Below, one piece after another: positions 2,731 through 59,988 of a DNA stretch of 64,000 nt (the first letter of the stretch is position 1; each line of letters begins with the position of its first letter). Position numbers and translations under genes: made by a program. Location of the stretch: the sequence record MN850579.1, one strand, 5' to 3'. The notes beneath the pieces are model-generated. The model had not been told where the DNA came from and searched no databases. It was given only the letters and a program-made list of their open reading frames with translations. The stretch comes from Escherichia phage mogra.

Positions 2731-3042
2731 ATGAAAACTTATCAAGAGTTTATCGCTGAAGCTACTAAAGCCGATAAAAATTTTATTATTAACACCACCG
2801 GTCCGTTAGATGATGAATACGCTAATGCTATTATTAAGTCAATTTCTAATCAAGGCGTTGAAGTAACAAATTTCGAATATAAGAAAAATGATACTTATAT
2901 GATAATTAGTATCAAAAAAGGTTCAAAAGCCAAAATTAAATCTGCGTTTGGTGTTATGCGAGTTGACCAAATCGATAACCACGATTTTTCACAAACAGGG
3001 GTCAAACGCCAAAATACCATTTCTTCTAAAGGCATAAAATAA
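2731..3042 (+). CDS. internal protein with capsid-targeting sequence (IPI locus)
   Basis: N-terminus MKTYQEFIAEA matches the T4 internal-protein capsid targeting sequence; position after 57B. Confidence 0.7.
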   Translation: MKTYQEFIAEATKADKNFIINTTGPLDDEYANAIIKSISNQGVEVTNFEYKKNDTYMIISIKKGSKAKIKSAFGVMRVDQIDNHDFSQTGVKRQNTISSKGIK

Positions 3043-3085
3043 TTTACAACAAGATAGGACTATGTTATAGTAGTCCTATCAAAAC
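3042..3085 (+). promoter_or_regulatory. early promoter / stem-loop cassette (TAGGACTA..TAGTCCTA family)
   Basis: ATTTAC -35; inverted repeat flanking TGTTATAG. Confidence 0.5.
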
Positions 3086-3103
3086 AACCAAACGGAACCT
3101 AAA

Positions 3104-3367
3104 ATGAAAACTTTCAACGAATTCATCTCAGAATCATCTGGTGTGAAAATTAACAAAGCGGTCAATCAGGTTATTGCTGATATTCTTAATTTGTATAACA
3201 TTGACTTAACTCCGCATATCACGCTTGGTAACAAACGAAACTTTTTCATATTTGACACATCTGAACTTGATGAAAATCGGTTCAATAACATTCAACGTTT
3301 TGCGAATGATAAAGGTCTTCGACACGAGCCTGGTGGCTATAAAAAATACGCAATATATTTGAAATAA
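3104..3367 (+). CDS. internal-protein-like, variant CTS (MKTFNEFISE)
   Basis: CTS-like N-terminus; own promoter cassette upstream. Confidence 0.55.
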   Translation: MKTFNEFISESSGVKINKAVNQVIADILNLYNIDLTPHITLGNKRNFFIFDTSELDENRFNNIQRFANDKGLRHEPGGYKKYAIYLK

Positions 3368-3416
3368 AGGTATACAAGCCTATAGGGATATGTTATAGTA
3401 GTCCTATCAAAACAAA

Positions 3417-3623
3417 ATGAGTAAATGGAGAAATAAAATGAAACGCGCTGAACTGATTCGTAATGTTGCTGTAGTAATTGCTTCAATGGCTTTTAGTTTT
3501 TCGATGTTTGTAGGATTCATTTGTGGACTACTGACAACAACAGAAAATTCTATCTCATTGGTAGTAGCATTTCTAATCGGCTTAATCGCTATCGTTATGG
3601 ATAAAATTGCAAAAGGTGAGTAA
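3417..3623 (+). CDS. small membrane protein
   Basis: 68 aa, two hydrophobic segments. Confidence 0.5.
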   Translation: MSKWRNKMKRAELIRNVAVVIASMAFSFSMFVGFICGLLTTTENSISLVVAFLIGLIAIVMDKIAKGE

Positions 3624-4370: not shown

Positions 4371-4445
4371 GGCCCTGTAGCTCAATGGGAGAGCTGTCAG
4401 CTCATAACTGATAGGTAGCTGGATCGAAACCAGCCAGGGCCACCA
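4371..4445 (+). tRNA. tRNA, anticodon CAU (Met or lysidine-modified Ile), with encoded CCA
   Basis: Cloverleaf by hand: acceptor GGCCCTG/CAGGGCC, D-stem GCTC/GAGC, anticodon loop CTCATAA, T-stem GCTGG/CCAGC, 3-prime ACCA. Confidence 0.8.
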
Positions 4446-4545
4446 ATTCGCGGTGAGTACGCTCTTAGGTAGGTAAGTTGTTCGAATAAGGGTTAAAAGT
4501 AGAACCTACAAACGAGTAACCCTGAAACACCCAAAGCCGCATCAT

Positions 4546-4622
<77 letters not shown>

Positions 4623-4640: not shown

Positions 4641-4985
4641 ATGAAAGGCAATATTTATTTGGTAGTTCATGATTTAACGTTTTATTTTAACGAACAGGAT
4701 ACAGTTATTTCCGACCGGTTGATTAATTCGTTATATCAACACGCTGATTACGTTTATTTTAAAAATGAATTAGGACATTGGAAGTTTCTTAAAAACCGTT
4801 CCGGGTTAACTAGTTTTGAATACTTTGACCGTAAAGACCTTTTAAACGAAATTCCATTACAACATCGGTTCCAGAAACGCGAATCACTATACTATTGTCG
4901 CCATATACCAAATGCTGAATGTGTTTATGAAGCGATTAATCTATGGCGTCGACGTCGAGAGCAAATTGATGATATGCCAAAATAA
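4641..4985 (+). CDS. hypothetical protein
   Basis: ATG 4641 after SD gaggaaaa; 5-prime part of the listed ORF overlaps the tRNA and was trimmed. Confidence 0.5.
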   Translation: MKGNIYLVVHDLTFYFNEQDTVISDRLINSLYQHADYVYFKNELGHWKFLKNRSGLTSFEYFDRKDLLNEIPLQHRFQKRESLYYCRHIPNAECVYEAINLWRRRREQIDDMPK

Positions 4986-5811: not shown

Positions 5812-5838
5812 GCCCCTTCCTTACGGTTGGGGCTTTTT
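5812..5838 (+). terminator. rho-independent terminator
   Basis: GCCCCTTCCTTACGGTTGGGGC then T5. Confidence 0.65.
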
Positions 5839-5871
5839 GGTATCTAGGGCATAAAAATATTTCATAAAGAT

Positions 5872-5900
5872 GTTTACTTCTTCCCTAGATGTGTTACTAT
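5872..5900 (+). promoter_or_regulatory. T4-type early promoter
   Basis: GTTTAC 5872; TACTAT 5895. Confidence 0.5.
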
Positions 5901-6432: not shown

Positions 6433-6491
6433 TGTACAAGCACCAAGGATGGTGATACTATAGACTTATCAACTACAGAGGAGTAAACAAA

Positions 6492-6656
6492 ATGACTACT
6501 TTAATTATTTGGTTCGATGAAAATGAAGAAACATACTGTGTGAATATTGGTGAAAGTCCAATGCCTGAATTTGAATCCTCAGATAAAAACTCTGTTGTAT
6601 CTTGGGCTGAAGGTTATAAAGCAGCTAAAGGTGACGTTGAAATAATTTACATCTAA
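6492..6656 (+). CDS. small hypothetical protein (54 aa)
   Basis: ATG after SD gaggag; below ORF-track length cutoff. Confidence 0.4.
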   Translation: MTTLIIWFDENEETYCVNIGESPMPEFESSDKNSVVSWAEGYKAAKGDVEIIYI

Positions 6657-6702
6657 GTAAGTTTATGTTATAGTAGTCCTATCAAATCAAGAGGAAAACA
6701 AA

Positions 6703-6930
6703 ATGGCTAAAGTTAGTATTGATGTCGTTGATTATGAATACACTGAAGAAGTTATTCGCAACCGTCACCCTGAAGTTCGTATCGATTCAGTCCAAGATTC
6801 CAAGTTCTGGACAACTGAGCTTAATCTGAGTGGTCCTTATGAAGCCGTTAAGAAGTTCATGGTTGAAGAATACTGTGAAGGCATGCACCCGGAAGACGCC
6901 AAGTTTTATGTCAATTTGATTAAAAAATAA
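6703..6930 (+). CDS. hypothetical protein
   Basis: 75 aa; SD gaggaaaa. Confidence 0.5.
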   Translation: MAKVSIDVVDYEYTEEVIRNRHPEVRIDSVQDSKFWTTELNLSGPYEAVKKFMVEEYCEGMHPEDAKFYVNLIKK

Positions 6931-6940
6931 TTTACAAACT

Positions 6941-6975
6941 CTTGAGAGCAGAGTATAATGCTCTCATTGGATAAT
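6941..6975 (+). promoter_or_regulatory. early promoter cassette, copy A of an identical 49 bp repeat
   Basis: TTTACA 6941, 17 nt spacer, TATAAT 6964; inverted repeat GAGAGCA/TGCTCTC; identical to 36843-36891. Confidence 0.6.
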
Positions 6976-7000
6976 AAACCACCAATTGAAAGGTAATAAT

Positions 7001-9743: not shown

Positions 9744-9788
9744 GTTTACAACAAGATAGGGCTATGTTATAGTAGTCCTATCAAAAAC
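9744..9788 (+). promoter_or_regulatory. early promoter / stem-loop cassette (TAGGGCTA..TAGTCCTA)
   Basis: GTTTAC 9744. Confidence 0.5.
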
Positions 9789-11039: not shown

Positions 11040-11084
11040 GTTTACACAATTATAGGACTATGTTATAGTAGTCCTACCAAAACA
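11040..11084 (+). promoter_or_regulatory. early promoter / stem-loop cassette (TAGGACTA..TAGTCCTA)
   Basis: GTTTAC 11040. Confidence 0.5.
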
Positions 11085-14065: not shown

Positions 14066-14119
14066 GTTTACTTCCTCCAAGGACTTTGATACTATACATC
14101 TATCAACTACTTGGAGGAA
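14066..14119 (+). promoter_or_regulatory. early promoter inside a 10 bp perfect inverted repeat whose 3-prime arm is the denV SD
   Basis: GTTTAC 14066; arms TTCCTCCAAG 14072-14081 and CTTGGAGGAA 14110-14119. Confidence 0.55.
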
Positions 14120-14122
14120 ATT

Positions 14123-14536
14123 ATGACTCGTATCAATTTGACACTTGTTTCTGAACTGACCGACCAACATCTTATGGCTGAGTATCGTGAATTACCACGC
14201 GTATTTGGTGCAGTCCGTAAACATGTTCAAAACGGTAAACGTGTAAAGGATTTTAAAATCTCTCCAACATTTATCTTAGGCACAGGTCACGTAACATTCT
14301 TTTACGACAAACTCGAATTTTTACGTTTACGACAAATCGAGCTAATCGCTGAATGCTTGAAACGTGGTTTCAAAATCAAGGACACGACAGTCCAGGATAT
14401 TTCCGACATCCCTGCCGAATTTCGTAATAATTATGTCCCGTCTGAAGCGTCCATTGCGATAAGTCAAGCACGCTTAGATGAAAAAATTGCTCAACGTCCG
14501 ACTTGGTACAAATACTATGGTAAATCAATTTACTAA
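14123..14536 (+). CDS. denV: endonuclease V (pyrimidine dimer DNA glycosylase) DenV
   Basis: [32 protein letters not shown]; near-identical to T4 endo V. Confidence 0.93.
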
Positions 14537-14542
14537 GGAAAA

Positions 14543-14803
14543 ATGAAAATGTATCAAGAATTTATCGCTGAAGCAGATGCCAAAGGTCCTAAATTTAAAG
14601 TTAAAGCTTTCATTGGTGATGCCGAAGACTTTGGCTCATTAAAACGTAATGGGTATTCTTTCTTAGGTGGCGATGGTAAAGAAATCAACACCTATGCAAA
14701 ACGTAGTGAAATTGCTTATGTTGTAGCAAGTCCTAAAGTAGATGTTGACGATATTGGATACGATTTTAACAACTTCGGAATTATTTCTGGCGGTAAAGCT
14801 TAA
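14543..14803 (+). CDS. internal protein with CTS (MKMYQEFIAEA)
   Basis: CTS N-terminus; ipII/ipIII locus by synteny. Confidence 0.6.
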   Translation: MKMYQEFIAEADAKGPKFKVKAFIGDAEDFGSLKRNGYSFLGGDGKEINTYAKRSEIAYVVASPKVDVDDIGYDFNNFGIISGGKA

Positions 14804-14806
14804 ACG

Positions 14807-14836
14807 GTTTACGCTTAAGTATTAATATGGTATAAT
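14807..14836 (+). promoter_or_regulatory. T4-type early promoter
   Basis: GTTTAC 14807; TATAAT 14831. Confidence 0.5.
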
Positions 14837-14866
14837 TACTCTATCAAAACAAACAAGGAAACAAAA

Positions 14867-15445
14867 ATGAAAACGTATAAAGAATTTATCGCCGAGGCCT
14901 TTGCAGGAAAAGCTCAAGGCATTAATAAGGACGAGTGGAATTATCGTGGCGGAAACGGCTTTGACCCTAAAACTGCTCCACTTGAACGATATCTGGCCAC
15001 AAAAGCTTCTGATTTTAAAGCCTTCGCTTGGGAAGGACTACGCTGGCGTAACGATCTAAATATTGAAGTTGACGGACTTAAATTTGCTCATATTGAAGAT
15101 GTTGTTGCTAGTAACTTAGACGCAGCTTTTGTTAAAGCCGACAGTGACCTTCGTCGCTGGAATTTAAAACTGTTCTCTAAACAAAAAGGCCCGAAGTTTG
15201 TGCCTAAAGCAGGTAAATGGGTCATTGATAATAAATTAGCTAAAGCTGTCAACTACGCCGGTCTTGAATTTGCCAAGCATAAATCATCATGGAAAGGTCT
15301 TGATGCAATGGCTTTCCGTAAAGAATTTGCCGATGTTATGGCTAAAGGCGGCTTTAAGGCAGAAATAGATACAACTAAGGGCACGTTTAAAGACGCTAAT
15401 GTTCAGTACGCTTACGCCGTTGCTAATGCAGCCCGTAATTCCTAA
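14867..15445 (+). CDS. internal protein with CTS, IPIII-like size (192 aa)
   Basis: MKTYKEFIAEA N-terminus; Lys/Ala-rich. Confidence 0.65.
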   Translation: MKTYKEFIAEAFAGKAQGINKDEWNYRGGNGFDPKTAPLERYLATKASDFKAFAWEGLRWRNDLNIEVDGLKFAHIEDVVASNLDAAFVKADSDLRRWNLKLFSKQKGPKFVPKAGKWVIDNKLAKAVNYAGLEFAKHKSSWKGLDAMAFRKEFADVMAKGGFKAEIDTTKGTFKDANVQYAYAVANAARNS

Positions 15446-15486
15446 TAAAGCTAATACTCAGACCTATTTACATTTAAAGGAAACAT

Positions 15487-15789
15487 ATGAAAACATATCA
15501 AGAATTTATTACTGAAGCGCGAGTGAGTGCAGGTAAATTAGAAGCCGCTATAAATAAAAAGGCCCATTCATTTCATGATTTGTCCGATAAAGACCGTAAG
15601 AAACTTGTAAGCCTTTATATTGACAAAGAGCGTATTCTCGCTCTTCCTGGCGCTAATGAAGGTAAACAGGCCAAGCCTTTGAATGCTGTCGAAAAGAAAA
15701 TTGATAACTTTGCTTCTAAATTCGGTATGTCTATGGATGACCTTCAGCAAGCGGCTATCGAAGCAGCTAAAGTAATTAAAGGTAAATAA
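15487..15789 (+). CDS. internal protein with CTS (MKTYQEFITEA)
   Basis: CTS N-terminus; 100 aa. Confidence 0.65.
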   Translation: MKTYQEFITEARVSAGKLEAAINKKAHSFHDLSDKDRKKLVSLYIDKERILALPGANEGKQAKPLNAVEKKIDNFASKFGMSMDDLQQAAIEAAKVIKGK

Positions 15790-15902
15790 CAGTTTACTTT
15801 CTCCTAGAATTGTGATAGTATATTCATAATTACTTGGAGGGGTAAATACAGAAATGGACAATTCATGCGCCACGGAATGGCCCAACCTAAAAGAGAAACT
15901 AA

Positions 15903-17895: not shown

Positions 17896-17945
17896 TTTAC
17901 TTCTCCTCTAGTTGTGTTACTATAGACTTGTCAACTAGAGGAGAA
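17895..17945 (+). promoter_or_regulatory. early promoter inside a 14 bp perfect inverted repeat whose 3-prime arm carries the SD
   Basis: GTTTAC 17895; arms TTCTCCTCTAGTTG 17901-17914 and CAACTAGAGGAGAA 17932-17945; TACTAT in loop. Confidence 0.6.
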
Positions 17946-17951
17946 ATCAAA

Positions 17952-18410
17952 ATGACTATCAATTCGGAAGTTTTTATCCGCCGTAATAAACTCCGTCGAA
18001 TCTTTGAAACGGAGTTCCGCAAAATAAATGCCGGTATAAAAGATGCTGCAAAGTCTCTTGGACTACCAGGCTTTCATATCAAGTATTCTCAACATCTCTT
18101 AGATCGTGCCATCCAGAGAGAAATAGATGAGAATTACGTTTTTGAATTATTTCATAAAGTAAAAAATCATGTTAAAGAAGTTGCAGAATTTTTATCAATG
18201 CCGGCACGTCCGGATGTTGATGAAGATTTTGTCGAAGGTGTCGAATATCGCCCAGGCCGTTTAGAAATAACTGATGGAAATCTTTGGTTAGGACTTACAG
18301 TTTGTCGCGAAAATCCAGCATTCAAAATGAAGACTCTTCAATGCAGAATGGCTATTATTAACAGTAAACGACTACCAGGAAAAGCTTCTAAAGCAGTGAT
18401 TAAAATCTAG
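17952..18410 (+). CDS. possible RegB endoribonuclease
   Basis: 152 aa, T4 RegB-like size and position between the vs-region and SLT-like gene; no motif confirmation. Confidence 0.4.
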   Translation: MTINSEVFIRRNKLRRIFETEFRKINAGIKDAAKSLGLPGFHIKYSQHLLDRAIQREIDENYVFELFHKVKNHVKEVAEFLSMPARPDVDEDFVEGVEYRPGRLEITDGNLWLGLTVCRENPAFKMKTLQCRMAIINSKRLPGKASKAVIKI

Positions 18411-19305: not shown

Positions 19306-19765
19306 AAACTATATCAAGGGCGATATTGTCGCCCTGTTTTCTAAAGGTAATAATATTGCTCATGGGTGTAATTGTTTTCATACAATGGGCGCTGGTGTGG
19401 CAGGGCAATTAGCAAAGGCTTATCCAAAAATTCTGGAAGCCGATAAACTTCAAACCGAATTCGGAGACAAGTCTAAACTCGGGACTTATTCGGTTTATGA
19501 AAAATATTTTAAGACCCATAAAGCTTATTGCTTTAATCTTTATACACAGTTTGAGCCGGGACCTAATTTTGAGTACTCTGCTTTAATGAATTGTATAATA
19601 GAATTAAATAAATTCGGAAAGAATAAGATAACAAAGCCTGTAATTTATATGCCAAGAATTGGTGCAGGTATTGGTGGTGGAAACTGGGATGTCATCGAAG
19701 AGATTTTAGATACGTATTCCACTAAACTAGAAATTGTGATTGTTGATTGGGAACCGTTATTATGA
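19298..19765 (+). CDS. macro-domain-like protein (tentative)
   Basis: NCFHTMGAGVAGQL and IGAGIGGG resemble macro-domain glycine motifs; start is GTG/TTG, no in-frame ATG near 5-prime end. Confidence 0.4.
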   Translation: MIKNYIKGDIVALFSKGNNIAHGCNCFHTMGAGVAGQLAKAYPKILEADKLQTEFGDKSKLGTYSVYEKYFKTHKAYCFNLYTQFEPGPNFEYSALMNCIIELNKFGKNKITKPVIYMPRIGAGIGGGNWDVIEEILDTYSTKLEIVIVDWEPLL

Positions 19766-19974
19766 ATATACATTATCCACATCCATATGATCCAAAGAAT
19801 AAGGCAGTAATTATTCGTCAATGGGAACGCATTTGTCGTACCAAATGTCCAATTAATAGTCCACATGATGTAGATAAAGACTACATCGGAACATTCGTTG
19901 AATATACCTTTATTGATAAGAAAGGCCGTAAACAACATGTAGAAGAATATTGCTTAAAGGTGACATGGCTATGA
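19762..19974 (+). CDS. hypothetical protein
   Basis: ATG overlapping upstream stop. Confidence 0.45.
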   Translation: MNIHYPHPYDPKNKAVIIRQWERICRTKCPINSPHDVDKDYIGTFVEYTFIDKKGRKQHVEEYCLKVTWL

Positions 19975-20177
19975 GTCAAACAAAAATTCTTACAGGTGCT
20001 AAATGCGAAAAATGCGAATGGCCTGTAGTTTTTGCTTTATGCAATGACGAAATGGCTTGTGATTTTGATTATTGGTGTTACTGTTCGAACAAAGGTTGTA
20101 GCAATCATAAAGGTGAAGGGTTTTACTCAGGATTTTACCCTTACCCAGATTTCGTTAAAGAAGGTGAACCTAAATGA
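19971..20177 (+). CDS. Cys-rich small protein (putative zinc-binding)
   Basis: CEKCEW..C..C..CYCSNKGC cysteine pattern. Confidence 0.5.
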   Translation: MSQTKILTGAKCEKCEWPVVFALCNDEMACDFDYWCYCSNKGCSNHKGEGFYSGFYPYPDFVKEGEPK

Positions 20178-21509: not shown

Positions 21510-21536
21510 GCCCCTTCCGAAAGGTCGGGGCTTTTT
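21510..21536 (+). terminator. rho-independent terminator after rI-like gene
   Basis: GCCCCTTCCGAAAGGTCGGGGC then T5. Confidence 0.7.
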
Positions 21537-21547
21537 GGCATCTATCA

Positions 21548-21599
21548 GTTTACTTCTCCTCAGGTTGTGTTATAGTAAACCTTACTTACTAGAGGAGAA
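21548..21599 (+). promoter_or_regulatory. early promoter with SD-containing inverted repeat (TTCTCCTC/GAGGAGAA)
   Basis: GTTTAC 21548. Confidence 0.5.
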
Positions 21600-21603
21600 C
21601 GTT

Positions 21604-21783
21604 ATGTCACGTAAAGAAAAAATTTCTAAGTTAATGTTTTTGATTGAAGAGTACGCTAATGCGGTATCTGATTGGGAAAATGCTCATGGTTGCGAAGATG
21701 GAGACATCGACATTAACAGAGCTATGAAAAAGATGGCCGACGCCCACACCGAATTGCAAATGTATGTTAACGAGATTATGTGA
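21604..21783 (+). CDS. hypothetical protein
   Basis: ATG after SD gaggag. Confidence 0.45.
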   Translation: MSRKEKISKLMFLIEEYANAVSDWENAHGCEDGDIDINRAMKKMADAHTELQMYVNEIM

Positions 21784-22000: not shown

Positions 22001-22043
22001 TTTACATCTTGGTAGGACTATGTTATAGTAGTCCTATCAAAAC
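22000..22043 (+). promoter_or_regulatory. early promoter / stem-loop cassette (TAGGACTA..TAGTCCTA)
   Basis: GTTTAC 22000. Confidence 0.5.
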
Positions 22044-23359: not shown

Positions 23360-24345
23360 TGAAAACAATTATGAAAGGCTACTTTGGTAGCCACCTTTAT
23401 GGAACGTCTACTCCTGAATCTGACGTCGATTTTAAAGAAATTTATGTCCCTCATGCTCGTGATATCTTGACCGGTAACGTTAAAGAACACATGAGCAAGA
23501 ACACGAATAACACATCTTCTAAGAACACAAAAGACGACGTGGACCATGAGTTGTATAGTCTCAAATATTTCTTTAAACTAGCTGCGGATGGTGAAACTGT
23601 CGCATTAGATATGCTTCACACTCCACAAAGTCTAGTAGTTAAATCTGATTTGCCTGATGTATGGAAGTATATTCAAGATAACAGGTCTCGTTTCTATACC
23701 ACTAACATGAAATCTTATTTAGGGTATGTCCGTAAGCAAGCTTCTAAATACGGTGTCAAGGGTTCTCGACTGGCTGTTCTTCGTCAAGCCCTTAAACGTT
23801 CTAATGAATGGGGACAATACTTTGATAATGGCGCAGTAATTCGTTTATCACATATGAAGAATGTTCTGCCTGTAGGTGAATTTGCTTCGTGGGTTGAAAC
23901 TGAAAACGAGAAAACAGGTAAGCAAACATTCTATAATCTGTTGGACCGTAAATTCCAAGACACATTAACCAATAAAGAGTTCAATGCCATCCTGGTTAAA
24001 CTAGAAGAGAACTATGGCGAACGTGCTCGTAAGGCAGAAGCTAACGAAGGTATTGACTGGAAAGCATTGAGTCATGCATGTCGTGGTGGACTTCAATTAT
24101 TGGAAATTTACAAAACCGGCGACCTGGTTTACCCACTTCAGGATGCTCCATTTATTCTCGATGTTAAGCTTGGTAAACATACGTTTAAAACTGTACAAGA
24201 ATTCCTAGAAGATATTGTTGACCAAGTTGAACAAGCATCAGAAAAAGCCGCTAAGAACGGTATGCAACAAAAAGTAGATATGAGTTTCTGGGACGACTTC
24301 CTTGAACAAGTCTATCTCGAAAATCATAATTCTTACTATAAATAA
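23356..24345 (+). CDS. nucleotidyltransferase-fold protein (Pol-beta superfamily-like)
   Basis: GSHLYGTSTPESDVDFK fits the GS...DxD NTase motif; C-terminal helical region. Confidence 0.55.
   Translation: MMKTIMKGYFGSHLYGTSTPESDVDFKEIYVPHARDILTGNVKEHMSKNTNNTSSKNTKDDVDHELYSLKYFFKLAADGETVALDMLHTPQSLVVKSDLPDVWKYIQDNRSRFYTTNMKSYLGYVRKQASKYGVKGSRLAVLRQALKRSNEWGQYFDNGAVIRLSHMKNVLPVGEFASWVETENEKTGKQTFYNLLDRKFQDTLTNKEFNAILVKLEENYGERARKAEANEGIDWKALSHACRGGLQLLEIYKTGDLVYPLQDAPFILDVKLGKHTFKTVQEFLEDIVDQVEQASEKAAKNGMQQKVDMSFWDDFLEQVYLENHNSYYK
24337..24344 (+). promoter_or_regulatory. candidate late promoter TATAAATA
   Basis: Exact octamer at the end of the upstream CDS, about 30 nt before ATG 24377. Confidence 0.35.
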
Positions 24346-24376
24346 ATAGATAAATAACCATTAACTTGAGGTAAAT

Positions 24377-24658
24377 ATGAAAAAATTAGTAATTGGTTTA
24401 TTCGCAGTAATGATGGCATTCTCTGTTGGTGCTACCACAGGTGCAACCGGCGGTAGTGCAGGAGCTGGTGGTAACCAGTCTTCTGGGCCTTCCAATGGTT
24501 CGGTAAATGCATCACATTCTCAGGGTATTGAGAATATCAGATCAAGCTATATTAATAGCACGGCCGGACAAGCAACTGAAGCATGGTCAAAGGGCCGAGT
24601 AGTTACTCGCTCCGTATTCTGTGATATGCCTAATTATGTTGCTAAGTGCGATAAGTAA
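24377..24658 (+). CDS. secreted Gly/Ser-rich protein
   Basis: Signal peptide MKKLVIGLFAVMMAFSVGA. Confidence 0.5.
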   Translation: MKKLVIGLFAVMMAFSVGATTGATGGSAGAGGNQSSGPSNGSVNASHSQGIENIRSSYINSTAGQATEAWSKGRVVTRSVFCDMPNYVAKCDK

Positions 24659-24682: not shown

Positions 24683-24776
24683 AGGGGGTTAAAATATTTT
24701 TAAAAAGTAGTGTACATGCTTTTAGGATATGTTATTATAGACCTATCGAAACGAAATGAGTAAATTGGAGAATAAA

Positions 24777-26184: not shown

Positions 26185-26236
26185 GTTTACAAGGTCTATG
26201 GTTATGTTATTATAGACCTATCAACTACTGGAGGTA
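26185..26236 (+). promoter_or_regulatory. early promoter with inverted repeat GGTCTAT/ATAGACC
   Basis: GTTTAC 26185. Confidence 0.5.
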
Positions 26237-27827: not shown

Positions 27828-27855
27828 GTACAACCAAGGATGGTTGGAGTATAAT
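27828..27855 (+). promoter_or_regulatory. promoter (TGTACA -35, TATAAT -10) for second coiled-coil paralog
   Basis: Shares CCAAGGATGGTTGGAGTATAAT with the 28822 cassette. Confidence 0.45.
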
Positions 27856-28821: not shown

Positions 28822-28851
28822 GTTTACAACCAAGGATGGTTGGAGTATAAT
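28822..28851 (+). promoter_or_regulatory. early promoter for third coiled-coil paralog
   Basis: GTTTAC 28822, 18 nt spacer, TATAAT 28846. Confidence 0.55.
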
Positions 28852-36840: not shown

Positions 36841-36843
36841 CGA

Positions 36844-36878
36844 TTTACAAACTCTTGAGAGCAGAGTATAATGCTCTC
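36844..36878 (+). promoter_or_regulatory. early promoter cassette, copy B of the identical 49 bp repeat
   Basis: TTTACA 36844, TATAAT 36867; identical to 6940-6988. Confidence 0.6.
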
Positions 36879-36909
36879 ATTGGATAATAAAATAACCGAG
36901 GAAAATAAT

Positions 36910-37242
36910 ATGTCTACTAAAATCAAAAACGTAGTTAATTCTTTCGCTTTCGATAAAGTTGTTGCTCTTCTGGAATCCGGCAATATTGTTACTCCTCAAG
37001 TTCTTGACGCGTGGGAATTCCGTCTTTATGAAATCATGCAAAAACACGACCAGAAAATTGGACGTAATTCTATTCGCGAAATTCTAGTACAATATATTCT
37101 TTCTGAATTTGACGTTGCTGCATTTGGTGTTGAATCTAAAGCTTATCAGAAACATGAAATCTCTGAAAAGACTATCCGTCGTATGAAAAATCAACGTAAG
37201 AAAAAATTCGTTGATCTGAAAATTGTTAAGGCGGTAAAATGA
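36910..37242 (+). CDS. hypothetical protein
   Basis: Downstream of duplicated promoter cassette; SD gaggaaaa. Confidence 0.5.
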   Translation: MSTKIKNVVNSFAFDKVVALLESGNIVTPQVLDAWEFRLYEIMQKHDQKIGRNSIREILVQYILSEFDVAAFGVESKAYQKHEISEKTIRRMKNQRKKKFVDLKIVKAVK

Positions 37243-37555: not shown

Positions 37556-37583
37556 GTGCTTTAAGATAGGTCTCTAAATATTA
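37556..37583 (+). promoter_or_regulatory. candidate middle (MotA-dependent) promoter for gene 55
   Basis: MotA-box-like TGCTTTA 37556-37562, then TATTAT about 15 nt downstream. Confidence 0.4.
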
Positions 37584-37621
37584 TGATATAATAGACCTAT
37601 GAATTGAGCCAAGAGGTACTT

Positions 37622-40666: not shown

Positions 40667-42351
40667 AATCATTTAAATTAAACCGTGTTCGTTATCAAAA
40701 CATCATGTCGGTAGGTGGGAATCCTATTGATATCCAATTAGATAAAGTCCAAAAGACATTAATCACTGGTAAAAATGGTGGTGGTAAATCTACGATGTTA
40801 GAAGCCATTACTTTCGGACTTTTCGGTAAACCATTTCGTGATGTTAAGAAAGGACAAATCATTAATAGCACGAACAAGAAAGAGCTCTTAGTTGAGCTTT
40901 GGATGGAATTCGATGATAAAAAATACTTCATTAGACGTGGCCAAAAGCCCAATATTTTCGAAATCTCCGTTGACGGTGTTCGTCTCGATGAATCTGCCAG
41001 CAGTCGTGACTTCCAAGAAGAATTTGAACGTAGCATCGGAATGTCATACGCGTCTTTTAAACAGATCGTTGTGCTTGGGACGGCAGGGTATACCCCTTTC
41101 ATGGCTCTTAGCACCCCTGCTCGTAGAAAACTTGTCGAAGACCTTTTAGAAGTCGGCACACTCGCTGAAATGGATAAAATCAATAAGTCTCAAGTTCGAG
41201 AACTTAATTCCCAGGGACAAGTTCTCGATGCCAAGAAAGATGGTGTTATCCAACAAATTAAGATTTATAACGAGAATATCGAACGTCAAAAGAAATTATC
41301 TGGTGATAATGTAGCGCGTCTACAGAATATGTATGACGACCTAGCCAAAGAAGCTCGTTCATTAAAAGCAGAAATCGAAGAAGCTAATGAGCGACTACTT
41401 AATATCGTTCTTGATGAAGACCCTACTGAGGCATTCAACAAGATAGGACAAGAAGCATTCTTGATTAAATCTAAAATTGACTCATACAACAAAGTTATTA
41501 AGATGTATCATGATGGCGGTACATGTCCTACTTGCGCATCACAGTTGCACCAGGGTGACCCTATTGTCTCTAAGATTACCGATAAGCTTCATGAATGTAA
41601 TCACTCATTCGAGCAACTTACCTGTCACAGAGATAATCTGAGTGTCCTAGTTGATGAATATAGAGCTAATGTTAAGACTAAGCAGGACCTTGCATCTGAT
41701 ATTCGTACCAAGAAACAAGCAATGATTGCCACTATTGATAAAGCTAAGAAAGTTAAAGCTGCAATAGAGCAAGCCTCAGCAGAATTTATCGACCATGCCG
41801 ATGAGATAGCTTTGCTTCAAAAAGAACTTGATAAAATCATTAAAACAAAATCGGATATCGTTCTTGAAAAATACCATCGTGGTATTATCACAGATATGTT
41901 AAAAGATTCTGGTATTAAAGGTGCTATCATTAAAAAATATGTGCCTCTGTTCAACAAGCAGATTAACCATTATCTTAAAATTATGGAAGCCGATTACGTG
42001 TTTTCTATTGACGAAGAATTCAATGAATCTATAAAATCACGTGGTCGTGAAGAGTTCAGTTATGCTTCATTTAGTCAAGGTGAAAAAGCACGTATCGATA
42101 TCGCGCTGTTGTTTACATGGCGAGATATTGCTGAAAAGGTTTCTGGTGTTAGAATTAATACATTAATTATGGACGAAGTCATGGATTCCGCGACTGATTC
42201 TGAAGGTATTAAAGCTATTTCAACAATTCTTAACTCTCTAACCGATGCAAACGTGTTTATAATTAGTCACAGAGACCATGACCCACAAGCTTATGGACAA
42301 CATCTTCAAATGAGCAAAGTTGGACGATTTACTGTGATGACTGTTTCATAA
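40663..42351 (+). CDS. 46: recombination endonuclease subunit gp46 (Rad50/SbcC-like ATPase)
   Basis: Walker A GKNGGGKST; coiled-coil middle; CPTC zinc hook; signature and Walker B near C-terminus. Confidence 0.93.
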   Translation: MKSFKLNRVRYQNIMSVGGNPIDIQLDKVQKTLITGKNGGGKSTMLEAITFGLFGKPFRDVKKGQIINSTNKKELLVELWMEFDDKKYFIRRGQKPNIFEISVDGVRLDESASSRDFQEEFERSIGMSYASFKQIVVLGTAGYTPFMALSTPARRKLVEDLLEVGTLAEMDKINKSQVRELNSQGQVLDAKKDGVIQQIKIYNENIERQKKLSGDNVARLQNMYDDLAKEARSLKAEIEEANERLLNIVLDEDPTEAFNKIGQEAFLIKSKIDSYNKVIKMYHDGGTCPTCASQLHQGDPIVSKITDKLHECNHSFEQLTCHRDNLSVLVDEYRANVKTKQDLASDIRTKKQAMIATIDKAKKVKAAIEQASAEFIDHADEIALLQKELDKIIKTKSDIVLEKYHRGIITDMLKDSGIKGAIIKKYVPLFNKQINHYLKIMEADYVFSIDEEFNESIKSRGREEFSYASFSQGEKARIDIALLFTWRDIAEKVSGVRINTLIMDEVMDSATDSEGIKAISTILNSLTDANVFIISHRDHDPQAYGQHLQMSKVGRFTVMTVS

Positions 42352-42405
42352 ACGCTTTAACATGATGTGGTTATAATGACCACATCAAATTAAATGGAGA
42401 ACAAC

Positions 42406-58196: not shown

Positions 58197-58258
58197 GGGG
58201 TTTACATCTTCCTCTAGGCATGATATGATGTACTTACACAAACCAAGAGGAAAACATT

Positions 58259-58633
58259 ATGAATATGTCTCAAGCAATTTTTACTGCAATCACCGAAAAC
58301 ACAACTGTTGAAGTAGTTTCTCCGCTGGCAACTTACGTTATTCTTGCTCCTAAAACTATTGTATCTCGTATGGAAAACATGGGCAAACGTATCGTACAAA
58401 TTGTTGGAGCCGGAAATCAAAAACTTGATTATCTACGAACCATCAAAGCTTATGAACATTTCCAACTCGAAAAAGGTTCTCCTATCCAGGTAGAACTCGT
58501 AAATGGTGATATCGTTCGAGCAATGTTCCATCATTTCTATGCATTGAATGACCCATCTAAAGCGGTTCGTTTAATTGCATATGACGCAAACCAAAACGAA
58601 ATCAACGCGGATATATCTAAATTACGTTTTTAA
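58259..58633 (+). CDS. hypothetical protein
   Basis: 124 aa; insert between genes 41 and 61. Confidence 0.5.
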   Translation: MNMSQAIFTAITENTTVEVVSPLATYVILAPKTIVSRMENMGKRIVQIVGAGNQKLDYLRTIKAYEHFQLEKGSPIQVELVNGDIVRAMFHHFYALNDPSKAVRLIAYDANQNEINADISKLRF

Positions 58634-58684
58634 GTTTACTTCTCCAGTAGTTGTGTTATTATAGACCTATCAACTACTGGAGAA
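58634..58684 (+). promoter_or_regulatory. early promoter inside a 14 bp perfect inverted repeat whose 3-prime arm carries the SD
   Basis: GTTTAC 58634; arms TTCTCCAGTAGTTG 58640-58653 and CAACTACTGGAGAA 58671-58684. Confidence 0.6.
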
Positions 58685-58688
58685 CAAA

Positions 58689-59006
58689 ATGAAAACCATC
58701 GATTGTAAAGCAGAATTTAAGATTTTTTATCACGGTTCAAGTAGTTCAGCTAACATCGAAAACATGCTTTGTCCTCCTGAAGAAACAGGAGTTCTGTCTG
58801 AAACTGGACGTAAGAAAAACTTGGATCGTGTATTCTTTACTGAAGATATCGGTTTAGCAAAGATTTATGCAGGACGAGCAGCACGCTCTTATGGAGGTGA
58901 ACCACGTCTCTATCGAGTAATTTCTCCGGTAGATGTAGTTCAAATGAATGATACTAAAGGCGCTACAGTTTATCACGCTGAATGGGCATTTTGCGAGGAA
59001 ATATGA
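58689..59006 (+). CDS. hypothetical protein (YHGSSS motif)
   Basis: 105 aa. Confidence 0.5.
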   Translation: MKTIDCKAEFKIFYHGSSSSANIENMLCPPEETGVLSETGRKKNLDRVFFTEDIGLAKIYAGRAARSYGGEPRLYRVISPVDVVQMNDTKGATVYHAEWAFCEEI

Positions 59007-59944: not shown

Positions 59945-59988
59945 TGTTTACATTATAGATGGACTATAGTATAGTAGTCCTATCAAAT
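59945..59988 (+). promoter_or_regulatory. early promoter / stem-loop cassette (GGACTA..TAGTCC family)
   Basis: GTTTAC 59945. Confidence 0.5.

Follow-up and report, generated by a model that had tools for sequence, protein, structure and literature searches.

Repeated early-promoter cassettes of an RB69-like phage probably carry selected stem-loops and recombine with one another

Two 49-bp sequences in front of different genes of one phage genome are identical to the last base, which raises the question of whether they were copied recently, are kept alike by what they do, or both. An earlier note on the 64,000-nucleotide stretch of Escherichia phage mogra analysed here (MN850579.1; hereafter, the window) had described them as a duplicated promoter cassette lying beside a second, dispersed repeat family, and had proposed that the perfect identity reflects recent copying or homogenisation and that such repeats are substrates for gene shuffling. 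We consider it probable that the repeats are portable T4-type early-promoter cassettes of the PeSL type that carry stems under selection and recombine with one another, with the stem acting in read-through RNA.

A 7-kb piece around the repeats matches the complete Mosigvirus genomes JK45, APCEc01 and ATK47 at 97% identity, and by sequence similarity the window belongs to an RB69-like phage of the T4 type (Mosigvirus). In annotated relatives, the region lies between genes 3/1/57 on one side and gene 41 on the other. The window has a GC content of about 37%. Since nearly all of its long ORFs lie on the + strand in an RB69-like phage, this strand was taken to be that of early-gene transcription, and all of the roughly 29 early-promoter-like sites in the window are on the + strand, in front of genes. 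Gene names (frd.3, e.6, 55.3, 55.2) are taken from the RB69 annotation. A search of the window for known RNA families (Rfam at gathering score) returned two tRNAs, at 4371-4442 and 4546-4619, and no other family.

The 49-mer, ATTTACAAACTCTTGAGAGCAGAGTATAATGCTCTCATTGGATAATAAA, has two exact occurrences, both on the + strand (Table 1). The earlier note had placed the second correctly and the first at 6940-6988, 10 nt away from its actual position. The identity of the two copies extends over exactly 49 bp, with different flanking bases on either side, and a search of the window at up to three mismatches found no further copy (0 expected in 100 shuffles). Both copies have a stop codon on the 5' side and the SD and ATG of the next gene on the 3' side. 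The description of the repeat as a promoter cassette agrees with this position between stop and SD/ATG, with the match of copy 1 to the sigma-70 consensus at 11 of 12 positions (the top match within the first 20 kb), and with the record of phage ATK47, which annotates the site of copy 1 as promoter-like. The genes around the two copies (frd.3/e.6 versus 55.3/55.2) gave no BLASTP alignment with each other and fall into different PHROG families, so the genes behind the two copies are indeed unrelated; those downstream of the cassettes belong to PHROGs of unknown function.

Within the 49-mer, the spacer sequence TGAGAGCA complements TGCTCTCA, whose first base is also the last of the -10, and the RNA of copy 1 is predicted to fold at -13.8 kcal/mol (z -3.6). 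The T4 early-promoter consensus is GTTTAC..TGnTATAAT with an UP element (reviewed in PMC2988021), and 57 early promoters have been predicted in RB69 on the same reasoning as is used here (Nolan et al., 2006, PMC1524935). The cassettes resemble T4 early promoters in their -35 TTTAC(A/T), 16-17 nt spacer, frequent TGn, -10 TAnnnT, A-rich upstream sequence, C-rich positions -3 to -1 and location before early genes; relative to the consensus, the 49-mer has neither a G before TTTAC nor a TGn. The upstream stretch reads AAAAAATA or AAAACAG at most copies and CGGATAACG instead at copy 2.

The dispersed family built on TAGGACTA..TAGTCCTA is also real: TAGGACTA-N8-TAGTCCTA at up to two mismatches occurs at six sites against 0.01 expected (3055, 3383 with two mismatches, 9757 with one, 11053, 22013, and 59959 with two), and a degenerate copy lies at 6658. 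Its members have the same design as the 49-mer, with stems of 10-13 bp; the promoter at 3043, for example, folds at -16.6 kcal/mol (z -5.6). Both families have a -35 TTTACA, a 17-nt spacer and a -10 TATAAT or TATAGT, the latter with TGn (TTTACA-17-TATAGT with TGn scores 10/12 against sigma-70), and both begin directly after the upstream stop and end 20-35 nt before the SD and ATG. The earlier note had seen the inverted repeat in TAGGACTA..TAGTCCTA and had missed both the same anatomy in the 49-mer and the selected hairpin.

Table 1. Predicted promoter cassettes and related features in the window, in order of position.
Feature	Position	Strand	Arms and promoter elements	Remarks
TAGGACTA-family promoter	3043-3083	+	TTTACA-17-TATAGT with TGn; arms GATAGGACTA 3053-3062 and TAGTCCTATC 3071-3080, 10 bp	fronts internal-protein gene
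Partial TAGGACTA-family member	3371-3409	+	TATACA-17-TATAGT; 5' arm TAGGGATA	stem imperfect
TAGGACTA-family member	6646-6686	+	degenerate 5' arm TAAGTTTA	before frd.3; no stable hairpin
49-bp early-promoter cassette, copy 1	6930-6978	+	-35 TTTACA 6931-6936; -10 TATAAT 6954-6959; arms TGAGAGCA 6943-6950 and TGCTCTCA 6959-6966	between frd.3 stop and e.6; exact match; inferred start ~6966
TAGGACTA-family member	9745-9785	+	arms GATAGGGCTA and TAGTCCTATC	one G.T (G.U) pair
TAGGACTA-family member	11041-11081	+	arms TAGGACTA 11053-11060 and TAGTCCTA 11069-11076	
Anti-SD promoter, denV	14067-14125	+	TTCCTCCAAG 14072-14081 pairs with CTTGGAGGAA 14110-14119	10 bp
Anti-SD promoter, regB	17896-17954	+	TTCTCCTCTAGTTG 17901-17914 pairs with CAACTAGAGGAGAA 17932-17945	14 bp; SD inside 3' arm
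Anti-SD promoter	21549-21606	+	TTCTCCTC 21554-21561 pairs with GAGGAGAA 21592-21599	8 bp
TAGGACTA-family member	22001-22041	+	22009-22021 pairs with 22028-22040	13-bp stem
Hybrid promoter	24711-24760	+		left half as RB69 ORF102c promoter, right half as RB69 nrdC.10 promoter
Independent promoter, same anatomy	26186-26222	+	arms AGGTCTAT 26192-26199 and ATAGACCT 26212-26219	
49-bp cassette, copy 2	36843-36891	+	-35 36844-36849; -10 36867-36872; arms 36856-36863 and 36872-36879	between 55.3 stop and 55.2; allele without ORF075c
Independent promoter-like site	42349-42390	+	arms GATGTGGT and ACCACATC around TATAAT	
Anti-SD promoter	58201-58261	+	TTCCTCT 58209-58215 pairs with AGAGGAA 58246-58252	7 bp
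Anti-SD promoter	58635-58691	+	TTCTCCAGTAGTTG 58640-58653 pairs with CAACTACTGGAGAA 58671-58684	14 bp; paralogue of 17896
TAGGACTA-family member	59947-59987	+	arms ATGGACTA and TAGTCCTA	one bulge in stem

The hairpins come in two forms. Form A, to which the 49-mer and the TAGGACTA family belong, has a spacer complementary to bases just past the -10, so that the -10 is enclosed in the loop of a hairpin of 8-13 bp whose 3' arm runs from the last -10 bases to about +2; unrelated arm sequences with this design are also found at 2666, 26186 and 42349. Form B has an anti-Shine-Dalgarno sequence (..TTCTCC..) as its spacer, complementary to the SD of the promoter's own gene, and the regB promoter at 17896 folds at -21.6 kcal/mol (z -5.3). 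The SD is predicted to lie in a helix of the long transcript at 14067, 17896, 21549, 58201 and 58635, and to be free of the predicted stem at the 49-mer and TAGGACTA copies. The promoter at 21549 is preceded by a terminator at 21510-21544.

Complementarity between the spacer and the sequence downstream exceeds chance expectation. Perfect complements of at least 7 bp are present in 11 of 28 promoters, where 0.8 would be expected and none of 200 shuffles had more than 4, and complements of at least 8 bp number 7 against 0.10 for form A and 4 against 0.15 for form B. The mean fold energy is -11.6 kcal/mol, compared with -7.2 when the spacers are shuffled (sd 0.39), and the same gap is seen in RB69 and T4; the stem-loops of the cassettes range from -13.8 to -21.6 kcal/mol, with z scores of -3.6 to -5.9. 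Spacers differ between families, yet each fits its own downstream arm when cognate and non-cognate pairs are compared. The spacing between arms ranges from 6 to 17 nt, and a hairpin of this kind is absent from about 7 of 29 promoters. Looser counts carry no such signal: SD pairing with the spacer in minimum free energy (MFE) structures occurs 8 times, not significantly more than the 6.1 of the shuffles, and the long perfect stems alone are significant. The MFE count of helices that enclose the -10 (26/33, 22/27, 13/18) was dropped as support, given that shuffled spacers yield 20.8/34.

Comparison across phages suggests that the pairing, rather than the sequence, is what is conserved. Among ten variants of the 49-mer, from RB69, Shf125875, JS09, LF82-3, NHEP11, SQ17, NRG-P0074 and the Tequatrovirus PinkRuby, 97.5% of cells are paired and both bases have changed at 3 of 8 pairs (U-A/U.G/C-G, A-U/G.U/G-C and C-G/A-U/U-A), a result matched in 0 of 500 shuffles. 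When the T4 and TB004 orthologues of the 22001 promoter are added to the TAGGACTA family, 4 of 13 pairs are doubly changed and 92% of cells are paired; the T4 orthologue has another sequence and the same stem. Among form B promoters, two neighbouring compensatory changes separate the paralogues at 17896 and 58635, the denV orthologues in T4 and TB004 have other arms, and the anti-SD stems of the T4 denV and regB promoters are made of different sequences. Because of these compensatory changes across phages, the stem pairing appears, on present evidence, to be under selection.

Stems also outlast promoters, being kept in some relatives in which the -35 or the -10 has decayed. In other Mosigviruses, the cassette at the 55.2 site has TATACA, TGCACA, CGCACA or TGCATA in place of its -35 and has kept the stem and the -10. 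The hairpin before ORF075c keeps 10-11 bp across six different loops, some of which have no recognisable -10, and it shows one compensatory change in LF82-3.

The exact match between the two 49-mers has a history of its own. The cassette family is genus-wide (351 places in 160 records, 1-3 per genome). The copy between frd.3 and e.6 is nearly invariant, and some Tequatroviruses have a related form before e.6, where homology to the window begins at the cassette. At the 55.3/55.2 junction, most Mosigviruses have a promoter, Px, followed by ORF075c (297 bp) and a diverged cassette, which has 6-7 differences in RB69 and Shf125875. A few phages, among them that of the window, PhAPEC2 and F27, lack ORF075c and have a cassette identical to the e.6 copy. 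The allele with the identical cassette and without ORF075c is present as a single piece at 99% identity or more in 17 of 161 Mosigvirus records, and the ORF075c indel falls exactly at cassette copy 2, with its left junction in the -35. Since the identity thus belongs to a minority allele coupled to the loss of ORF075c, the sequence comparison supports recent copying or conversion: the perfect match is on this evidence a derived, lineage-specific product of recombination or conversion at 55.3/55.2, reached either by deletion followed by conversion or by a single patch event. A BLAST match that in some genomes looked like a third copy, as the promoter of ORF075c, was discarded; in NRG-P0074 it lies near ndd. 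Beyond complete genomes, an IMG/VR scan with the pattern TTTACA-N14-TGTTATAGT, meant to collect family members, gave mostly random matches in unrelated contigs among the matches listed, and a search with a pattern for the flank of the second site matched two contigs and no more.

Recent homogenisation, as proposed in the earlier note, fits the 49-mer and not the TAGGACTA family. There, site-specific variants (TAGGGCTA at 9757, TAAGTTTA at 6658) are inherited unchanged across genomes, and because these differences persist, the copies are better seen as old paralogues kept alike by selection.

Do the cassettes shuffle genes? We compared the window with RB69, Shf125875, PhAPEC2 and LNA2 over 48 kb, which contain about 21 indel or replacement events. 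Five of these have both edges in cassettes or leave hybrid or duplicated promoters. Two are promoter-bounded swaps of internal-protein (IP) genes, at 2753-3427 and 14895-15864. In PhAPEC2 and TB004, a deletion of ORF145c has left a hybrid promoter, with the crossover in the SD region shared by promoters 6433 and 6646. The window itself has the hybrid promoter at 24711, where the crossover lies inside a shared 19-bp sequence, ATGTTATTATAGACCTATC, and ORF102c is missing. The fifth event is the ORF075c indel. Crossovers thus fall in the -35 at copy 2, in the -10 and 3' arm at 24711 and in the SD in the ORF145c deletion; we take these junctions as direct evidence, at the level of sequence, that cassettes recombine with each other.

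The suggestion that the repeats serve as substrates for shuffling is therefore upheld by the hybrid promoters and by the PeSL literature discussed below, without any excess of breakpoints. The cross-phage comparison that the earlier note called for turned up hybrid promoters and the ORF075c indel at cassettes, while the 9-10 of 21 events that touch a promoter zone are no more than expected from whole-gene indels placed at random gene junctions, roughly 30% of which have a promoter. At least 6 of the 21 events have no promoter nearby, and the cassettes are one shuffling route among others.

What the stem does must be judged from its position. Each cassette runs from a stop codon or A-rich stretch through a -35 TTTACA, a 16-17 nt spacer, a -10 and a leader of about 20 nt to the SD and ATG, and would be read by the host sigma-70 RNA polymerase as a predicted early promoter, with a spacer complementary to the sequence past the -10 in the window's phage, its RB69 relatives and T4 alike. 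Leaders that begin at the promoter's own start, about 7 nt past the -10, lack the 5' arm and are predicted to be essentially unstructured. As this transcript starts at or inside the 3' arm, the hairpin would form solely in RNA started upstream; it would thereby mark read-through and shield each gene cassette from transcription that arrives from upstream. The form B stem in read-through RNA would hide the ribosome-binding site and the GGAG target of RegB. In form A, the stem may work as an attenuator, the activity reported for RB49, or may separate cistrons as a 3'-end or decay barrier.

We infer a role in sense-strand read-through RNA from the inability of the promoter's own transcript to fold, from the anti-SD class, whose design is intelligible in sense RNA alone, and, more weakly, from G.U-type intermediates: a strict count inside stems gives 8 G.T against 3 A.C (one-sided p ~0.11), which is suggestive only, and a permissive score that allows stem extension gives 28 against 30, which is noise. 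Perfect inverted repeats cannot by themselves separate RNA from DNA, nor one strand from the other. The form A stems are not canonical intrinsic terminators of the sense strand, since AUCAAAAC follows the stem and the U-tract is absent; an intrinsic-terminator scan of that strand called none of the cassette stems, which are followed by ATCAAAAC or TTGGATAA and by no U-tract. We found nothing in a literature search for T4 Term-seq or dRNA-seq data showing RNA ends at the hairpins.

Readings in which the inverted repeat works as DNA, or on the other strand, fit less well with the covariation and with crossovers at such scattered positions. If the arms were operators, a dimeric phage or host protein would bind TAGGACTA-N8-TAGTCCTA and another would bind TGAGAGCA-N8-TGCTCTCA, across the -10, to shut down some of the early promoters. 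The repeat is centred on the -10 as in many repressor sites, its six copies have near-identical arms and loop that are conserved across Mosigviruses, and reviews call early-promoter shut-off not fully understood, which makes an operator a candidate. We nevertheless regard operators as very unlikely, as one genome holds at least eight unrelated arm sequences in one geometry with no half-site common to all, arm spacing varies, form B arms are set by the SD, and orthologues in T4 and Mosigviruses keep the pairing and not the sequence, through double changes and G.U intermediates. The tie of form B arms to the sense-strand SD also counts against the proposal that the stems terminate antisense transcription entering early clusters, with the reverse complement of the -35 and A-rich element as a U-rich tail. 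The scan does call one such terminator on the minus strand, a 10-bp stem at 3080-3053 with TTGTTGTAAA behind it, and A-rich upstream elements give T-rich antisense tails in general; yet this one copy alone passes, the stems at 22001, 6931 and 36844 have poor tails with 2-3 U among the first 8 nt, and G.U-type intermediates on the + strand would be A.C on the minus strand, all of which leaves antisense termination most improbable.

That the cassettes do recombine might point to a DNA structure, a cruciform or single-strand hairpin that opens the -10 or is a target at which endonuclease VII or gp46/47 starts recombination. Crossovers are found wherever two cassettes share sequence, however, which fits plain homology-driven exchange. 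Stems of 8-10 bp with 8-nt loops are poorly extruded as cruciforms, the 5' arm stays double-stranded in the open complex, and stems persist where the promoter has decayed, so that we give a DNA structure very little credence. Least credible, and extremely improbable, is that strong early promoters converge on one optimum and are self-complementary by accident. T4 early promoters do share consensus beyond the -35 and -10, and a downstream ..CCTATCAA.. is common to many promoters in the window. Promoter strength alone would not, however, give spacers that are unlike between families and each match their own downstream arm, compensatory changes, complementarity beyond the shuffle controls, or a 49/49 identity at copy 2 that is confined to a minority allele. 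A MITE or transposon reading was set aside, as the inverted repeat is internal, around the -10, and not at the ends of the repeat unit.

Promoter cassettes of this kind have published precedent. In RB49 and phi1, PeSLs have a stem-loop most often between the -35 and -10 or overlapping the -10, and both promoter and attenuator activity and recombination between PeSLs have been shown experimentally (Arbiol et al., 2010, PMC2839356); a later study brought T4/PST and KVP40/nt-1 under the same concept (Comeau et al., 2014, PMC4122927). PeSLs combine an AT-rich stretch, a sigma-70-like -35/-10, a stem-loop at the promoter and the SD/ATG of a small gene, and are repeated through variable regions, where recombination between copies deletes, inserts or replaces the ORFs between them. 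Here, likewise, we found a -35 and -10 at 16-18 nt spacing with AT-rich sequence upstream, a stable stem-loop in or next to the promoter, an SD and start codon on the 3' side, an intergenic location in a variable region and recombination indels between close relatives. Judged on these features, the cassettes are the published kind of element, and the finding is real and largely ordinary. In contrast to the stems in the window, those of RB49 and phi1 are G-run/C-run and are treated by the authors as terminators or attenuators; the window's stems have no U-tract, and in one entire subclass it is the SD that the spacer pairs with. The covariation and the retention of stems without promoters are additions to the published description. 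A literature search for PeSL together with RB69 found no paper, and the present sequences extend PeSL-type cassettes to the RB69 group, where they appear widespread and still recombining, with clean hybrid promoters and a conversion or deletion allele that can be dated.

Form B, and not the 49-mer or the TAGGACTA family, can also be compared with the T4 hairpins that sequester a ribosome-binding site and contain an internal promoter (e, soc, 49, I-TevI; reviewed in PMC3014915). In those genes, the long transcript puts the SD in a helix and the transcript from a promoter inside the structure, without the 5' arm, is translatable; for form B, a like arrangement is predicted. The e/soc-type cases have internal late promoters (TATAAATA) and delayed expression, whereas the internal promoter of form B is of the early sigma-70 type and would confine translation to the early period or to the transcript of the gene itself; these reviews list hairpins with internal late promoters and nothing equivalent for early ones.

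It is tempting to see in the promoter-embedded hairpins a general RNA-level insulation device of T-even phages, a model that we hold tentatively and think somewhat doubtful. If it were true, regB and denV would be translated from their own early-promoter transcript only, an 'early-only' gate that would mirror the late-promoter hairpins of e and soc, and form A stems would separate cistrons for decay or attenuation. Insulation would also account for the extra consensus of T4 early promoters, whose 'additional regions of consensus' have been noted and not explained as self-complementarity (PMC2988021), and cassettes that work in any context would make modular shuffling viable. The stem is the conserved part, and its covariation and the anti-SD subclass, present in T4 too, seem most worth following. 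The model could be tested by mutagenesis in T4, with bearing on the extra early-promoter conservation and on how dense tandem promoters escape cross-talk, and for phage engineering, the 50-60 bp units look like self-insulating expression cassettes.

Repeats that flank internal-protein genes have a longer history: in the 1994 work of Repoila et al., as cited by Comeau et al. (2014, PMC4122927), they are described at the IP locus of T-even phages. The IP genes of the window (2731, 3104, 14543-15487) are likewise bounded by homologous promoter and leader repeats and swapped between relatives, and the ATK47 record carries a related note. As far as that citation goes, the 1994 work concerned the IP locus only, whereas the family in the window also fronts non-IP genes across 57 kb.

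Judged from its sequence, the genome of Shigella phage TB004 (L005), which is filed as a Tequatrovirus, is an inter-genus mosaic: an frd.3-cassette-e.6 segment of Mosigvirus type is present, its 49-mer unaltered, and the remaining promoters match T4. Some Mosigviruses, such as phage NRG-P0074 (L133, record 4796-4839), have the 49-mer family at a third locus, adjoining an ndd-like gene; this locus is not present in the window.

The hairpin upstream of ORF075c, the 297-bp gene missing from the window, is kept in other Mosigviruses as a stem of 10-11 bp (arms CGATAGGAAGA/TCTTCCTATCG; GGTAGGAAGA/TCTTCCTACC in the LF82-3 version), with a -10-bearing loop that occurs in six versions, some of them lacking the -10. 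The phage records with this hairpin are L002 (RB69, reverse complement 37200-37240), L128, L129, L130, L132, L134, and L135. Within the window, the site upstream of gene 55 has a MotA-box-like TGCTTTA followed by an inverted repeat (ATAGGTCT/AGACCTAT) around TATAAT and may be a middle-promoter stem-loop, resembling the PmSLs described for nt-1.

Repeated modules of other kinds are listed in the table. The two terminator-like hairpins (GCCCCTTCC..GGGGCTTTTTGG), 86% identical and 15.7 kb apart, are each followed by an early promoter whose spacer pairs with the Shine-Dalgarno of its own gene, forming a terminator-then-promoter module. Besides the 49-mer, a second promoter core, TACAACCAAGGATGGTTGGAGTATAAT, is duplicated with all 27 nt identical, and its inverted repeat (AACCA-AGGA-TGGTT) lies within the spacer rather than around the -10; a separate site, CACCAAGGATGGTG, is similar. 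A conserved repeat, AAATGAAAAC.TATCAAGA.TTTAT, with the leader MKTYQEFIAE, recurs in the 5' coding part of the five internal-protein-like genes, and the breakpoints of swaps of such genes among Mosigviruses fall within promoter and leader.

Features of the window by position
Feature	Position	Detail
Internal-protein-like genes (n=5)	2729, 3102, 14541, 14865, 15485	common 5' coding repeat
tRNA genes (n=2)	4371-4442, 4546-4619	
Terminator-like hairpin	5812-5846	promoter at 5873
Terminator-like hairpin	21510-21544	promoter at 21549
Similar site (CACCAAGGATGGTG)	6441-6454	
Insert	19755-20166	two 75-aa ORFs (phrog_2008, phrog_2306)
Insert	24344-24655	ORF 24377-24658 (phrog_2243)
27-nt promoter core	27829-27855, 28825-28851	1 kb apart
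Gene 55 upstream site	37556-37600	

Both inserts are missing in RB69, Shf125875, and PhAPEC2, and the one encoding phrog_2243 also in LNA2; neither has a promoter cassette at its borders. The distance between the tRNA genes varies among Mosigviruses through an indel at 4416-4545.
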